From a virus: a stretch of 15,092 nt of DNA. The translations under genes and the position numbers were made by a program. The notes below the pieces were generated by a model. It was given only the letters and a program-made list of their open reading frames with translations, was not told the DNA's origin and ran no database searches. Of the stretch, positions 10,234 through 15,012 are shown piece after piece; position 1 is the first letter of the stretch; the number at the start of each line of letters is the position of its first letter. Where the stretch lies: the UHGV virus genome UHGV-1737584, one strand, 5' to 3'.

Positions 10234-10773
10234 CTACCACCAACTGCTAGCTTTCTTCTCTCTAGCTTTTCCTTCGCTTTGCAGTAAATCTTTACTTCCT
10301 GTAGAAATATTTCTATTTGCATCAGCCTCAGACTGAATTACATCTGTCTTAGCTGCTCTCTCCTTCAACTCCTGCTCTATAAAATCGTTTTCTCGCTGGA
10401 CACGAGCCGCTTTTGCTTGCAGTTCGAGTTTCATGCTTTCGAGTTGCAGCTTGCGAAGCTCATCCTCATAAGCTTGATCTCGCTTCTTGTCATTTGCTAG
10501 CTCGGCTTCTCGTTTCGCTCTACGTTCATTTTCTGCAGCAACACGCTGTTTTTCGCGTGCAGCAGCGGCAGATGCTGCTTTTTCTCTTCTAATACGTTCA
10601 GCTTGTGCTTGTTGGCGAATAAGTTCTTTTCTGGCATCCTCAGCTTGCTGCTCTTTAGCTCGCCCTTCATTTTCCGCTTGAGCAATAGCAGCAATTTGAC
10701 TTTGCAACGAGTTAGCCAAGGCAGTGCCTACACTAAACGTAGAAAAGATTAGAAATAAAATAATTTTATTCAT
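10234..10773 (-). CDS. Exported (signal-peptide) coiled-coil protein, 179 aa, TolA-like charged helical repeats
   Basis: N-terminus MNKIILFLIFSTFSVGTALA is a classic Sec signal peptide. The mature part is a highly charged Ala/Glu/Arg/Lys/Gln-rich predicted coiled coil ending in SSWW. Lies in the P1 sim-locus position. Confidence 0.75.
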   Translation of the reverse strand: MNKIILFLIFSTFSVGTALANSLQSQIAAIAQAENEGRAKEQQAEDARKELIRQQAQAERIRREKAASAAAAREKQRVAAENERRAKREAELANDKKRDQAYEDELRKLQLESMKLELQAKAARVQRENDFIEQELKERAAKTDVIQSEADANRNISTGSKDLLQSEGKAREKKASSWW

Positions 10774-10776
10774 AAA

Positions 10777-11298
10777 TTATTTCTTTTCTGGACAAGTAGC
10801 ATTTGGCTGAATTCGAGTTTCATTATCTTTAGTTGAAATAAGCACAGCAAGCCCCGTTGTAAACTGGCATGCTTTACCAACTTGAGTTGAAGTGAACACC
10901 TTAGTTCCTTCTTTATAAGTCAGTGAAACACCTTCAACAATTGTTTTATCACTAACCAAAGAACCAGCCGCTGCACCAAGAGCCGCACCACCAGTACCGC
11001 CAGCTACAGCACCCAGTGTCGATGTGCCTTTAACATTATAACCGGCAACGCCCCCAGCAACAGCTCCCAGTACCGCACCAAATGTCTGTGCCGCTTCTTT
11101 ATTAGCTTTATTATCAACTTTCACTTTAGCTGGAAGCACAGAGATAATATTGACTGTCTTTGTTTCCTGCTTCGAATTCAATTGAGCGGTATCATAAACA
11201 TCGGCAGCATAATCAGCACCGCTAGATTGACACCCAGAAAGAAGAATTGCAGATACAACAAGAGCGCATAAAGTATACTTTTTAGACATAAGAATCAT
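10777..11298 (-). CDS. Lipoprotein with glycine-zipper segment, 173 aa (or 170 aa from the second ATG at complement 11287-11289)
   Basis: Lipobox LLSGC after a KK-containing hydrophobic leader (MSKKYTLCALVVSAILLSGC). Central GAVLGAVAGGVAGY...GAVAGGTGGAALGAAAGS glycine zipper, typical of SlyB/PCP-like outer-membrane lipoproteins. Two C-terminal Cys. Only 3 bp separate it from the downstream gene. Confidence 0.8.
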   Translation of the reverse strand: MILMSKKYTLCALVVSAILLSGCQSSGADYAADVYDTAQLNSKQETKTVNIISVLPAKVKVDNKANKEAAQTFGAVLGAVAGGVAGYNVKGTSTLGAVAGGTGGAALGAAAGSLVSDKTIVEGVSLTYKEGTKVFTSTQVGKACQFTTGLAVLISTKDNETRIQPNATCPEKK

Positions 11299-11565
11299 CC
11301 CGGAAAAACAAAAACCGGCGAGAAGTTACCACGAGAACGGAAAGTAAACAAGAATACTCCCATTGACTTATATCAATTAATCAACTTTTTATAAGCTATC
11401 ACTAACTTATTGTGTATAGCTGAAAAGTCAGAGACAAGTTCACCATCTGCATTATTTCTTAAGTTAATAGTTTATTGCTAACTTAATTCATGTATCGACT
11501 ATTGATAGCCATCTTAAAGTTACAATATCCCTCTGCATTATTTTTCATCACAAATAATATATCTA

Positions 11566-11596
11566 TTGCACGACACTCATCTGCTCTAATAAATTT
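11566..11596 (+). promoter_or_regulatory. Sigma70-like promoter (TTGCAC-17-ATAAAT) overlapped by a C1-operator-like site (ATCTGCTCTAATAAATTT)
   Basis: -35 at 11566-11571, -10 at 11589-11594. The 15-mer TGCTCTAATAAATTT at 11582-11596 matches the P1 C1 operator consensus ATTGCTCTAATAAATTT as I remember it (15/17) and recurs at 13253-13267. Confidence 0.6.
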
Positions 11597-11634
11597 GTAT
11601 TTTTAAGTCGCGAATGCTATCTTTTCGCATCATA

Positions 11635-11663
11635 TTGACCTTTTAATCGTTCAGGCTTATAGT
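11635..11663 (+). promoter_or_regulatory. Near-consensus sigma70 promoter TTGACC-17 nt-TATAGT, candidate constitutive promoter for the c4-icd-ant transcript
   Basis: -35 at 11635-11640, 17-nt spacer, -10 at 11658-11663. Lies ~120 nt upstream of the structured RNA and has no operator-like sequence over it. Confidence 0.6.
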
Positions 11664-11783
11664 TTCGCCGTCGTAGCAAATTCTGCGACCGGGTTTAGCA
11701 GCCTGAATGATTGTGCGGACAGCCGCAGATATCCGATATTGCGGTATTTTTGTGTCCGTAAAACCGCGTTACGCCCAAATTAT

Positions 11784-11860
11784 GGTGGGGCGTGATGGGG
11801 AGGCTTCGGCCTGCTGGTTTCACAATCGCCAGTCTGCTAACCCCGTCACGTCCTGCCACC
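11784..11860 (+). ncRNA. c4: c4-like antisense repressor RNA, ~77 nt, structured
   Basis: Nested stems read from sequence: GGUGG (11784-11788) with CCACC (11856-11860); GUGAUGGGG (11792-11800) with CCCCGUCAC (11841-11849, one G-U); internal GGC-UUCG-GCC tetraloop hairpin (11802-11811). Single-stranded segments are complementary to downstream sites at the icd RBS. The 77-nt span matches the reported length of P1 c4, but I chose the ends knowing that length. Confidence 0.55.
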
Positions 11861-11910
11861 TGTTTAGCAGCGGGTAGCAGGTTGTTAAACCTGATTGTGA
11901 GGCCGTAACT

Positions 11911-12132
11911 ATGGTTAATGCCAATCCTTGCGCACGCCAAGAATTCATCTGGCGTTTCTATTCCTGTAAAAAACACCACTATCACTTCGTCATCGCAGCA
12001 ACAGAAGACGAAGCACGCTCTCAATTGCCTGATGGTCCCTGCATTTTTACTGCCCGTTTTTCAACTAACTCGCGCAATTCACTTAGTTACTGGAACCTCC
12101 CCTTCTCTGCCGACGTTCAGGGGGATTTATGA
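11911..12132 (+). CDS. icd: Small 73-aa protein, translationally coupled to the antirepressor gene (Icd-like)
   Basis: ORF with GAGG 8 nt upstream of its ATG; its TGA overlaps the ant start (ATGA at 12129-12132). The RBS region is complementary to the upstream RNA. The 73-aa length and position match P1 icd as I recall. Confidence 0.6.
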   Translation: MVNANPCARQEFIWRFYSCKKHHYHFVIAATEDEARSQLPDGPCIFTARFSTNSRNSLSYWNLPFSADVQGDL

Positions 12133-13172
12133 AAAAACCTCTCGTCACCCGTAATGAAATAGCCGAAGCGATCGCCCTGCATACAACCTGTATGCCGACA
12201 CGGGAGATCCCCGGCGCAATTGCCAACTATTTCATGATAACCAGACGTTTTTATACCCGAACAGATAAGGCTGTGATCAACAAGCTACTGATAGCCGAGA
12301 TCAGGGATTATTTGATTGAACAAGGACGTCTACGTTACGCAACAGTGGCAGCAGAAATGAGAAAGGAGGCACATAGAATGACCGGTAATAATTTGAATGT
12401 TGAAAAACCAGCACCTGTTGCTTCAGCTACGCCATCACCAGCTGTGAATGTTATCTCCAACACTGGAGACACAATCGACAGCCAGACACTGTTAAAGATG
12501 GTCAATGAAGCTCGTAAGTTATGTGGGGAACCAGAGGTTCGGAACAACAAATTCATCGAAAAAATACTCGACGAATTAGAAGGTGAGGACGGTTACACAA
12601 AAAGTGCAACCGTGCCGCCAGGTGGCGGTACGCCTATGGTTGTCATAACCATGACCTACAAACAAGCCCTGCGAGTCGCCGCGCGCGAGTCAAAAGCGGT
12701 CCGCCGTTCGCTGATCGACAAACTGGAAGAATTACAGCAGGCAAACTCCCCTACCCCATCGATCCCCCAGACATTACCAGAAGCCCTACGCCTGGCTGCC
12801 GAGTTAGCAGAACAGAAAATGCAGTTGGAACAACAGCTGGTGGCCGCAGCCCCTAAAGTCGATTTTGCCGACCGGGTATCAGTGGCCAATGGAATCCTGA
12901 TCGGGAACTTTGCAAAGGTCGTTGGACTTAAGCAAAACGCCCTTTTCTCATGGTTGCGCCAGAATGGCATTCTCATGGCTTTTGGAGCGCGCAAAAACGT
13001 ACCGCGCCAACAGTACATCAACGCGGGGTATTTCACGGTGAAAGAAGTGGTGCTGGATGATGAAAATGGCTACCAGATACGGCTGACGCCCCAATTAACG
13101 GGTAAAGGCCAGCAGTGGTTAACTCGCAAGCTACTTGATGCTGGTTTGTTAAAACCAGTAGCAATAGGTTAA
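12129..13172 (+). CDS. ant1: Antirepressor Ant1, 347 aa, with C-terminal ANT/KilA-C type domain
   Basis: Strong SD AGGGGG upstream of the ATG. C-terminal ~130 aa (LPEALRLAAELAEQ...GKGQQWL...LLDAG) is the phage antirepressor C-terminal domain and is paralogous to the KilA C-terminus in this window. Confidence 0.85.
   Translation: MKKPLVTRNEIAEAIALHTTCMPTREIPGAIANYFMITRRFYTRTDKAVINKLLIAEIRDYLIEQGRLRYATVAAEMRKEAHRMTGNNLNVEKPAPVASATPSPAVNVISNTGDTIDSQTLLKMVNEARKLCGEPEVRNNKFIEKILDELEGEDGYTKSATVPPGGGTPMVVITMTYKQALRVAARESKAVRRSLIDKLEELQQANSPTPSIPQTLPEALRLAAELAEQKMQLEQQLVAAAPKVDFADRVSVANGILIGNFAKVVGLKQNALFSWLRQNGILMAFGARKNVPRQQYINAGYFTVKEVVLDDENGYQIRLTPQLTGKGQQWLTRKLLDAGLLKPVAIG
12378..13172 (+). CDS. 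ant2: Nested in-frame antirepressor Ant2 (264 aa) from an internal start
   Basis: Internal in-frame ATG at 12378-12380 preceded by a consensus SD AAGGAGG at 12364-12370. P1 is known to make Ant1 and Ant2 from in-frame overlapping starts. Confidence 0.6.
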   Translation: MTGNNLNVEKPAPVASATPSPAVNVISNTGDTIDSQTLLKMVNEARKLCGEPEVRNNKFIEKILDELEGEDGYTKSATVPPGGGTPMVVITMTYKQALRVAARESKAVRRSLIDKLEELQQANSPTPSIPQTLPEALRLAAELAEQKMQLEQQLVAAAPKVDFADRVSVANGILIGNFAKVVGLKQNALFSWLRQNGILMAFGARKNVPRQQYINAGYFTVKEVVLDDENGYQIRLTPQLTGKGQQWLTRKLLDAGLLKPVAIG

Positions 13173-13184
13173 CAAAAGAAAAAA

Positions 13185-13210
13185 ACCTGCCAGCAAACTG
13201 GCAGGTTTCT
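13185..13210 (+). terminator. Hairpin terminator after ant (9-bp perfect stem ACCTGCCAG / CTGGCAGGT, loop CAAA, then TTCT)
   Basis: Read directly from sequence, 13 nt after the ant stop. The 3' U-tract is short, so termination may be partial. A-rich 5' flank could also let it act on the opposite strand. Confidence 0.55.
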
Positions 13211-13249
13211 GAGCAGATCATCCAACCCGATCTGGATCGAGTTAGAAAA

Positions 13250-13267
13250 ATTTGCTCTAATAAATTT
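13250..13267 (+). promoter_or_regulatory. Second C1-operator-like site (ATTTGCTCTAATAAATTT) in the kilA-repL promoter region
   Basis: Same 15-mer TGCTCTAATAAATTT as at 11582-11596, located 70 nt upstream of kilA. A possible -35 TTGCTC (13252-13257) and weak -10 TAAGTG (13275-13280) overlap it. Confidence 0.6.
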
Positions 13268-13336
13268 CGTTTTCTAAGTGCAAAGAATCACCATTTCGAG
13301 CTGGTGATTGAAGGTTGATGCAAATTTGGAGAAAAA

Positions 13337-14137
13337 ATGCAACAAACATTCAATGCGGATATGAATATATCAAACCTTCATCAAAATGTCGATCCTTCAA
13401 CCACTCTGCCCGTTATTTGTGGTGTTGAAATTACGACCGACCGCGCTGGCCGTTACAACCTTAATGCTCTACACAGAGCGAGCGGACTCGGTGCCCATAA
13501 AGCGCCAGCTCAATGGCTAAGAACGCTGTCAGCCAAACAGCTCATCGAAGAGCTTGAAAAAGAAACTATGCAGAATTGCATAGTTTCGTTCGAAGGCCGT
13601 GGCGGCGGCACTTTTGCCCATGAATTGCTCGCAGTGGAGTACGCAGGCTGGATTTCTCCCGCGTTTCGGCTGAAGGTAAACCAGACATTTATCGACTATC
13701 GAGCCGGAAGATTACAACCTGCTATTCCGAAGAGCCTCCCAGAAGCTCTCCGTTTGGCTGCTGACCTGGCAGAGCAAAAGCAACGGCTGGAGCAAAAAAT
13801 GCTGATGGATGCACCTAAAGTCGAATTCGCCGAACGCGTTGCTACCGCCAGCGGGGTTCTAATCGGCAACTATGCCAAAGTGCTCGGCCTGGGCCAAAAC
13901 TATCTCTTCACCTGGTTGCGTGATAACGGAATTCTGATCGCAACCGGTGAACGCAGGAACGTCCCCAAACAAGAATACATATCCCGTGGGTATTTCACCC
14001 TTAAAGAAACCGTGATCGATACAAGCAATGGAAGCAGGATTTCTTTCACGACTCGTATAACCGGCAAAGGTCAGCAGTGGCTGATGAAGCGATTGCTTGA
14101 TGCTGGTGTGCTGGTACCTGTCGCGGCAACGCGCTAA
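13337..14137 (+). CDS. kilA: KilA protein, 266 aa: N-terminal KilA-N domain plus C-terminal ANT-type domain
   Basis: SD GGAG 7 nt upstream. N-terminal region (ICGVEITTDRAGRYNLNALHRASG...) has the KilA-N DNA-binding-domain character. C-terminal ~130 aa are paralogous to Ant. The 266-aa length matches P1 KilA as I recall. Confidence 0.8.
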   Translation: MQQTFNADMNISNLHQNVDPSTTLPVICGVEITTDRAGRYNLNALHRASGLGAHKAPAQWLRTLSAKQLIEELEKETMQNCIVSFEGRGGGTFAHELLAVEYAGWISPAFRLKVNQTFIDYRAGRLQPAIPKSLPEALRLAADLAEQKQRLEQKMLMDAPKVEFAERVATASGVLIGNYAKVLGLGQNYLFTWLRDNGILIATGERRNVPKQEYISRGYFTLKETVIDTSNGSRISFTTRITGKGQQWLMKRLLDAGVLVPVAATR

Positions 14138-14166: not shown

Positions 14167-15012
14167 ATGCTGGCTAAAGTCACTTTCCTGAGCTGTATAA
14201 CGATGAGCGATTTTACTTTTTCTGGCTATGAATTGGCCTGCTTTGTAACACACTCCGGTCTATCCCGTAGCGCCGGGCATATCCTGTCGCAATGTGCAAA
14301 TCTAGCGGCAACAACCAGTGAATACTTCATTCACAAGCCTCACCGCCTGATCGCGGCAGAAACTGGTTATAGCCAATCAACCGTCGTTCGTGCATTCCGT
14401 GAAGCTGTAAACAAAGGAATTCTGTCTGTAGAGATTGTTATCGGCGATCACCGTGAACGTCGCGCTAACCTGTACCGGTTTACACCATCCTTTTTGGCCT
14501 TTGCTCAACAAGCCAAAAATGCGCTAATTGAAAGCAAATTAAAGATCTCTTCAGCCGCAACCAAGGTTAAAGCAGTTCTCGCTAAGACATTGGCTTTATT
14601 TGATTTTTTATCCACACCCCCATGTCAAAATGATACCCCCTCCCCCTGTCAGGATGACGTGGCAATAAAGAATAAGAAGTCACAAATTAAAAAAACAAAA
14701 AGATCAGTTTCCGGCGGTGCCGAAACGACCAGCCTCAAAAAACTGACTTCATGGATCGCCGAGGCAAAAGCAAAGGCTGACAATCTGCGGTTATCCAAAA
14801 AACGCGCTCAAAAACATGAGTTCAAGCAGAAAGTAGAGGCGGCAGCGCGGAAATATGCTTACCTGAAGAACAAGCGTTCTCCTGATATTGGCGGGGTATC
14901 AAACTTCGATAATTTGCCGCATTGCATGACGGTAAACGAAGCTCTTAATGCGGTTTTAGCCAAAAATAAAGATAACGAACAATGGGGTATACCGGCAGGA
15001 TTCAGAGGGTGA
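14167..15012 (+). CDS. repL: Lytic replicon protein RepL-like, 281 aa, with HTH-like segment
   Basis: ORF immediately after kilA. Segment LIAAETGYSQSTVVRAFREAVNKGIL looks like a helix-turn-helix. Contains an internal short direct repeat and an A-rich tract. The 281-aa length matches P1 RepL as I recall. No clear SD at 14167; an in-frame alternative ATG lies at 14203. Confidence 0.7.
   Translation: MLAKVTFLSCITMSDFTFSGYELACFVTHSGLSRSAGHILSQCANLAATTSEYFIHKPHRLIAAETGYSQSTVVRAFREAVNKGILSVEIVIGDHRERRANLYRFTPSFLAFAQQAKNALIESKLKISSAATKVKAVLAKTLALFDFLSTPPCQNDTPSPCQDDVAIKNKKSQIKKTKRSVSGGAETTSLKKLTSWIAEAKAKADNLRLSKKRAQKHEFKQKVEAAARKYAYLKNKRSPDIGGVSNFDNLPHCMTVNEALNAVLAKNKDNEQWGIPAGFRG

Follow-up and report, generated by a model that had tools for sequence, protein, structure and literature searches.

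c4 antisense RNA of the P7 specificity type in the immI operon of a P1-like phage-plasmid genome

Introduction

Regulation by an antisense RNA that is excised from its own target transcript has been textbook knowledge since 1990. Until then the c4 repressor had been assumed to be a protein. According to the papers cited in this section, c4 of phages P1 and P7 is a processed RNA of ~77 nt, with RNase P cleaving at the 5' end of its outer (P1) stem (PMC5320573), and the c4 precursor is a tRNA-like substrate of RNase P (PMC3858429). The ~77-nt RNA and its RNase P cleavage are credited to Citron & Schuster 1990/1992 (as cited in PMC5320573, PMC3858429 and PMC12197685), and Hartmann et al. 1995 supplied the experimental proof of processing, for a P7 sequence identical to the one described here (via PMC5320573 and PMC3858429). 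The literature also describes how the b' box occludes the ribosome-binding site while the a' box adds specificity (PMC5320573), and how c4 of P1 and P7 blocks synthesis of the anti-repressor Ant in trans (PMC8546580; PMC8198154; PMC12197685). Differences in the boxes are stated to underlie the heteroimmunity of P1 and P7 (PMC12197685; PMC6906374).

Here we describe the c4 locus in a stretch of 15,092 nt from the virus genome UHGV-1737584 (the window). We assign a probability of about 0.96 to the reading that positions 11784-11860 encode a c4 antisense RNA of P7 specificity, which belongs to the immI immunity operon of a phage-plasmid in the P1/P7 family and acts by the mechanism proposed below. 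The value of the assignment lies mainly in annotation; the mechanism is already established and nothing is added to it here.

Identity and fold of the c4 RNA

The Rfam family C4 (RF01695) was matched at 11778-11863 over its full length (model positions 1-87), with 69.6 bits against a gathering score of 45 and E = 4e-12. The covariance model of this family scores sequence and structure jointly. The RNA is identical in 77 of 77 nt to the c4 of P7 and to that of RCS47, and the coordinates of the P7 misc_RNA c4 map exactly onto 11784-11860. In the GenBank text of P7 this RNA is an 'antisense RNA acting on targets icd and ant transcribed from the same promoter'. Judged by its bases, which are those of phage P7 c4, the element is one that is already known. 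No tRNA or tmRNA gene was found by ARAGORN within 11600-12000, and a tRNA/tmRNA reading of c4 was rejected on this ground; only the acceptor-like stem and the CCA-like end recall a tRNA.

The minimum free energy (MFE) of c4 was -44.9 kcal/mol, and the MFE and centroid structures agreed. None of 200 dinucleotide shuffles folded as well (z = -5.73). In the predicted fold a 17-bp, acceptor-like outer stem with a 3' ACC overhang encloses hairpin I (AGGC / UUCG / GCCU) and hairpin II, which has a 6-bp stem and a 9-nt loop, UUCACAAUC. Hairpin II and the outer stem are joined by a single-stranded junction of 7 nt, CUGCUAA. The two recognition boxes b' and a' lie in this loop and in this junction, respectively (Table 1), and opening either of them costs ~0.1 kcal/mol.

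The architecture was found again in an RNAalifold consensus of 26 diverse C4 RNAs. These were collected by scanning IMG/VR with the conserved 5' junction pattern TTATGGTGGGGCGTH while excluding the P1-type continuation. Nine of the 26 consensus pairs carry compensatory double changes, all five hairpin I pairs among them. Within this set there is hardly any variation in the 5' GGUGGGGCGU or in the 3' end, CC-A/G-CC, and the sequence signals for RNase P, namely the acceptor-like stem, the 3' CCACC and the 5' junction UUAU/GG (the slash marks the expected cleavage site), are kept across the 26 members.

A first-pass annotation of the region, made from the letters of the DNA, had proposed a 77-nt structured RNA here and had called it a c4-type antisense RNA on icd-ant. 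The fold energy, its z-score and the match to the annotated P7 c4 bear out the structured RNA, and its assignment to c4 is backed by the Rfam score, the complete identity to P7 c4 and the immI gene order. Folding and covariance comparison with c4 of P1 and P7, which the same annotation had suggested, gave concordant results, as the fold, the Rfam match and the P7 identity all agree.

Organization of the immI operon

The features of the locus are collected in Table 1. Their order is that of the immI operon of P1 and P7: operator, promoter, a1/b1, c4, a2/b2, icd, ant1/ant2, kilA and repL. The upstream promoter P2c4 was absent from the consensus scan and was placed by homology with P1 alone. No terminator-like site was detected by scanning between c4 and its targets. 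The ATG of ant1 overlaps the stop codon of icd (ATGA, 12129-12132), which allows translational coupling. Further upstream, the two minus-strand genes at 10234-11298 occupy the position of the superimmunity genes simABC of P1, as do upf50.0/upf50.5 in P7. This position hints at an alternative exclusion function.

Table 1 Features of the c4 locus and its surroundings in the window
Feature	Position	Strand	Evidence or remark
DUF5384 membrane protein gene	10234-10773	-	upstream of c4; one of two genes at the upf50.0/upf50.5 position
Weakly TraT-like lipoprotein gene	10777-11298	-	23.1 bits vs a Pfam cutoff of 31
C1 repressor operator Op(c4), formerly Op51, TCTGCTCTAATAAATTT	11580-11596	+	P7 protein_bind and P1 Oc4 annotations
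Upstream promoter P2c4 (P51a), -10 TATCTT at 11618-11623	11594-11623	+	P1 annotation via alignment
Main promoter P1c4 (P51b), TTGACC-17 nt-TATAGT	11635-11663	+	consensus scan 10/12; P1 annotation coincides
c4-a1b1 leader motif	11657-11709	+	Rfam RF03163, 54.6 bits vs 46.7, E = 1.2e-11
a1 box TTAGCAG	11695-11701	+	complement of a'; homologous P1 site annotated 'putative a1 target'
b1 box GATTGTG	11709-11715	+	complement of 7/8 nt of b' (CACAATC); homologous P1 site annotated b1
c4 antisense RNA, mature, 77 nt, P7 specificity type, GGUGGGGCGUGAUGGGGAGGCUUCGGCCUGCUGGUUUCACAAUCGCCAGUCUGCUAACCCCGUCACGUCCUGCCACC	11784-11860	+	RF01695, P7 identity, fold, compensatory pairs
b' recognition box UCACAAUC	11820-11827	+	hairpin II loop; mean P(unpaired) 0.96
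a' recognition box CUGCUAA	11834-11840	+	hairpin II/outer-stem junction; mean P(unpaired) 0.94
a2 target box TTAGCAG	11864-11870	+	perfect 7-nt complement of a'
b2 target box GATTGTGA	11893-11900	+	perfect 8-nt complement of b'
icd, 73 aa, cell-division inhibitor	11911-12132	+	ORF; 98.6% aa identity to P7 Icd; annotated in P7, P1 and RCS47
ant1, 347 aa, anti-repressor	12129-13172	+	ORF; Pfam ANT/KilAC domain, 1.2e-30
ant2, in-frame internal start of ant1, preceded by AGGAGG	12378-13172	+	P7 and P1 annotations; ATG and Shine-Dalgarno read
kilA	13337-14137		downstream of ant1/2
repL-sized ORF	14167-15012		after kilA

Target boxes and their pairing with c4

Two sets of boxes complementary to c4 flank the RNA. 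Upstream, a1 and b1 sit within or beside the c4-a1b1 motif, which folds into a pair of small hairpins, the second of which carries a1 in its loop. Downstream, b2 stands 11 nt before the icd ATG (11911), and its final two bases also begin the icd Shine-Dalgarno (SD) sequence GAGG (11899-11902). In the P1 record a2 and b2 are annotated as sites of 'repression of icd ant translation'.

The first-pass annotation had proposed three contacts between c4 and the leader downstream of it. Two of these, CTGCTAA (11834-11840) with TTAGCAG (11864-11870) and TCACAATC (11820-11827) with GATTGTGA (11893-11900), proved to be exactly placed and perfectly complementary, over 7 nt in the former case, while the latter covers the start of the icd GAGG. 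The third contact joins CGGCCT and AGGCCG and is weighed below; five of the six strings lie where they had been placed and CGGCCT is one base off. The upstream pair a1/b1 had not been noticed. An exhaustive search of c4 against its flanks for perfect complements of >=6 nt recovered these three pairs and added the a1 and b1 pairs. Another a-like box, TAGCAG (11875-11880), lies between a2 and b2 and is complementary to 6 nt of a'. UAGCAG is unchanged in P1-type relatives although their a' reads CUGUCAA and mismatches it; this box was rejected as an extra target, and its match to a' is probably coincidental.

Of 5000 dinucleotide shuffles of c4, 56 matched the 55-nt leader downstream at two distinct places with complements of >=7 nt, and 2 had a further two such complements upstream as well. 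The chance estimate from shuffles alone is modest evidence; covariation and the identity to P7 are decisive. Among nine annotated relatives six combinations of a' and b' occur, and in each both target copies are complementary. A larger sample was obtained by searching IMG/VR for exact matches to the unvarying core of hairpin I, which yielded at least 120 loci; together with the earlier loci and the window these gave 123 scorable copies. In 120 of the 123, a1, b1, a2 and b2 are all perfect complements of the copy's own a' and b'. The scorable loci hold two a' and at least seven b' alleles, and the commonest combination among the matches listed (32 loci) is the P7 type, that of the window. Such three-way covariation of the boxes is strong evidence, on the side of sequence comparison, for a function by base pairing.

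Within P1-like elements the two boxes seem to reassort independently. In the IMG/VR loci at least 12 combinations were seen, built from the a' alleles CUGCUAA and CUGUCAA and from at least seven b' alleles (UCACAAUC, UCGUAAGU, UCACUAAC, UCAUUCGU, UCAUGUAC, UCACAAGU and UCUUGAAC); a1, b1, a2 and b2 are perfectly matched in nearly all combinations. This reassortment implies that immI specificity is split into many classes beyond the classical P1 and P7.

In distant members of the C4 family b2 always adjoins or overlaps the SD sequence, 8-14 nt before the ATG. Automatic parsing of a' and b' from MFE folds mis-assigned the junction in about one third of the distant loci (junctions of 0-3 nt), and the low a2/b2 lengths recorded for such loci stem from this parsing artefact, not from missing targets.

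Alternative readings of the region

The 56-aa ORF at 11707-11877 (+) might be taken to encode a protein that is the c4 repressor. It starts with an ATG and spans the region, c4 appears as a CDS in the old record X15639, and the homologous ORF is listed as 'hypothetical protein' in JL22 (gp42) and phi456. However, relatives vary mainly in two short boxes, in which 2-6 of 8 bases are changed, and these changes are mirrored at two separate sites outside the RNA, a pattern that coding constraint cannot explain. The stem pairs show compensatory changes, a covariance model that scores structure gives a match well above its threshold, and c4 is annotated as misc_RNA in both the P7 and the P1 record. 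Citron and Schuster reportedly found in 1990 that frameshift or stop mutations in the ORF of P1/P7 leave immunity intact when the RNA fold and the boxes are preserved. A protein-coding c4 was rejected on the covariation of boxes and targets, and its probability is negligible; the ORF is almost certainly a non-coding artefact, which should not be annotated as a protein. It is also very improbable that the c4 structure works in cis only, with the icd-ant mRNA using it as a leader or attenuator element and no separate trans-acting RNA being released. c4 and its targets do share a transcript with nothing terminator-like between them, and the MFE fold of the whole leader leaves the c4 domain intact. 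Yet the outer stem, the 3' CCACC and the UUAU/GG junction are invariant across a diverse family, as expected of a substrate of RNase P, and the leader folds predicted for relatives are inconsistent with each other. Moreover, the literature documents the identical P7 sequence as processed, trans-acting and the basis of P1/P7 heteroimmunity (PMC5320573; PMC12197685; PMC8546580). In the MFE fold of the putative primary transcript, the a1 region GGUUUAGCAGCCUG (11692-11705) pairs with CAGGUUGUUAAACC (11878-11891), between a2 and b2. This predicted helix of 14 bp, including 2 G-U pairs, encloses c4 and would tolerate both a alleles by a U-U opposite the variable AG/GA. It was set aside since the folds of 17 distinct P1-like leaders disagree and leaders of the SJ46/D6 type have no complementary segment; the helix may be an artefact.

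A different question is whether a trans-acting c4 makes a third contact, with CGGCCU (11807-11812) pairing to AGGCCG (11900-11905) besides a'/a2 and b'/b2 and so covering the rest of the SD sequence. The first-pass annotation had proposed this contact and had described CGGCCT as a loop segment at 11806-11811. Those bases read TCGGCC, and the hexamer occupies 11807-11812; AGGCCG was correctly placed. The complementarity is real, amounting to 6 nt and -9.9 kcal/mol as an isolated duplex, its polarity fits an extension of the b'/b2 helix, and neither partner varies in any of the P1-like loci examined, which also makes the P1-like group uninformative on the pairing. The loop status did not hold, nor did comparison with relatives lend support. 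Hairpin I takes up four of the six bases in its 3' arm; P(unpaired) within CGGCCU falls as low as 0.012, and opening this stretch would cost 3.05 kcal/mol. The pairs of hairpin I co-vary with each other, which indicates selection on the stem itself. A set of 39 distinct, more distant loci carries 13 other hairpin I sequences, one natural variant being GAGCC-GAAA-GGCUC, which keeps the stem but has lost the complementarity to AGGCCG. In these loci the longest stretch of hairpin I able to pair within the 11 nt that follow b2 measured 2-4 nt, and several of them keep AGGCC behind b2 while having an unrelated hairpin I, a wastewater phage contig (L009) being a detailed case. That no equivalent pairing was seen in the sequences of the 39 distant members argues against a third contact as a family-wide feature, and the three-site arrangement is considered unlikely. 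The same low standing applies to a version for the P1/P7 subgroup, in which hairpin I would melt after nucleation at b'/b2 and the CGGCCU-AGGCCG pairing would sequester the whole icd SD sequence. Hairpin I is best read as conserved for its stem, and its match to the SD flank in P1/P7 as a coincidence that arises from the resemblance of its 5' arm GAGGC to the SD region GAGGCC.

Proposed mode of action

The antisense reading, with the two contacts a'/a2 and b'/b2, would entail the following course of events. The promoter region controlled by C1 would give rise to one precursor, which carries the leader with a1/b1, c4, a2/b2, icd and ant1/2. The first base of the acceptor-like stem, G11784, would become the 5' end of c4 when RNase P cuts this precursor after U11783, and processing on the 3' side would leave 77 nt with a terminal CCACC. 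In this mature form c4 would offer a' and b' as two single-stranded boxes for pairing with a2/b2, either in trans or on transcripts of the same operon. Through the overlap of b2 with the icd SD sequence ribosomes would be unable to load on icd and, with ant1 depending on icd translation, no Ant anti-repressor would be made. Without Ant, C1 would stay active, and both lysogeny and superinfection immunity would hold. Biere, Citron and Schuster reportedly found in 1992 that loss of icd translation also lowers transcription of ant, by Rho-dependent polarity.

For the locus itself, family membership, identity to P7, the fold, the accessibility of the boxes and the three-way covariation of c4 were all directly observed. 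Since RNA and targets are 100% identical to those of P7, we infer that this c4 represses icd/ant in trans. The sequences of a' and b' would set the specificity of immunity, and this c4 should repress P7-type rather than P1-type targets, the latter having two mismatches in each box. An immI module of P7 specificity predicts immunity, at the level of immI, to superinfection by P7-type but not by P1-type phages.

Comparison with known systems and relatives

The whole 15-kb window matches ~800 plasmid records in PLSDB, mostly from E. coli, with a best identity of ~98.4%. Together with the P1/P7 context, these matches identify the source as a P1-like phage-plasmid. A search for Icd in genome contigs returned only three close relatives and one doubtful match, and tblastn of Icd against phages returned P1-like records and D6 only. 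One contig of 2.9 kb (JAFAFU010000019.1), binned in a MAG labelled 'Bacillota bacterium', encodes an Icd 97% identical to that of the window and is probably a mis-binned fragment of an E. coli P1-like element. A Phycisphaerae MAG holds a weak and partial Icd match, with 46% identity over 38 residues.

Over the 276 bp at 11640-11915 the window shares 100% identity with RCS47 and phi456, 99.6% with P7 and 92.8% with P1. In P7 (AF503408, misc_RNA 51057-51133) all 77 nt of c4 as well as a1, b1, a2 and b2 are the same as here, and so are the order of the operon and its neighbours, upf50.0/upf50.5 upstream and icd, ant1/2, kilA and repL downstream. Within 11560-11930 only three substitutions separate P7 from the window, all of them outside c4 and the boxes. 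P7 differs in that the ant1 region of the window aligns to it in two pieces covering 93% of the query, which indicates that the replicon is a mosaic P1-like plasmid and not P7 itself. The immI region as a whole (11500-13300) looks mosaic: its c4 module is that of P7/RCS47, and its ant1 region aligns in two pieces (93%) to P7, RCS47 and SJ46. Records of 'P1' of the MH422554 type cover 100% of the ant1 region at 96.4% identity, yet carry a different b' allele. These alignments suggest recombination between c4 and ant.

c4 of P1 (NC_005856, 48343-48419) is identical in 72 of 77 nt and has the same length, fold, processing signals, operon and mechanism. Four of the five differences lie in a' and b', and the remaining one turns an outer-stem G-C pair into G-U. 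The a' box is CUGUCAA in P1 versus CUGCUAA in the window, the b' box UCACUAAC versus UCACAAUC, and in both cases the targets are changed to match. The genes upstream also differ, with simABC in P1 and genes of the P7 type upf50.0/50.5 in the window.

C4 RNAs of lambdoid and other prophages, among them the isrK-adjacent RNA of L009 and loci from IMG/VR, share with the window the outer stem, the junction UUAU/GGUGGGGCGU, the 3' CCACC and the two hairpins. Their a' and b' are likewise complementary to boxes that precede the SD sequence, with b2 adjoining it. They differ in the sequences of hairpin I, the hairpin II loop and the junction, and the genes downstream are other genes of the anti-repressor type, not icd-ant. 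In L009 (514-709) an RNA of the isrK family (RF01394, 53.8 bits) stands directly upstream of the C4 RNA (80.7 bits), at the position of the c4-a1b1 leader, and holds an a1-like box, TTGACAG. This arrangement suggests that leaders of the isrK type and those of the c4-a1b1 type are counterparts.
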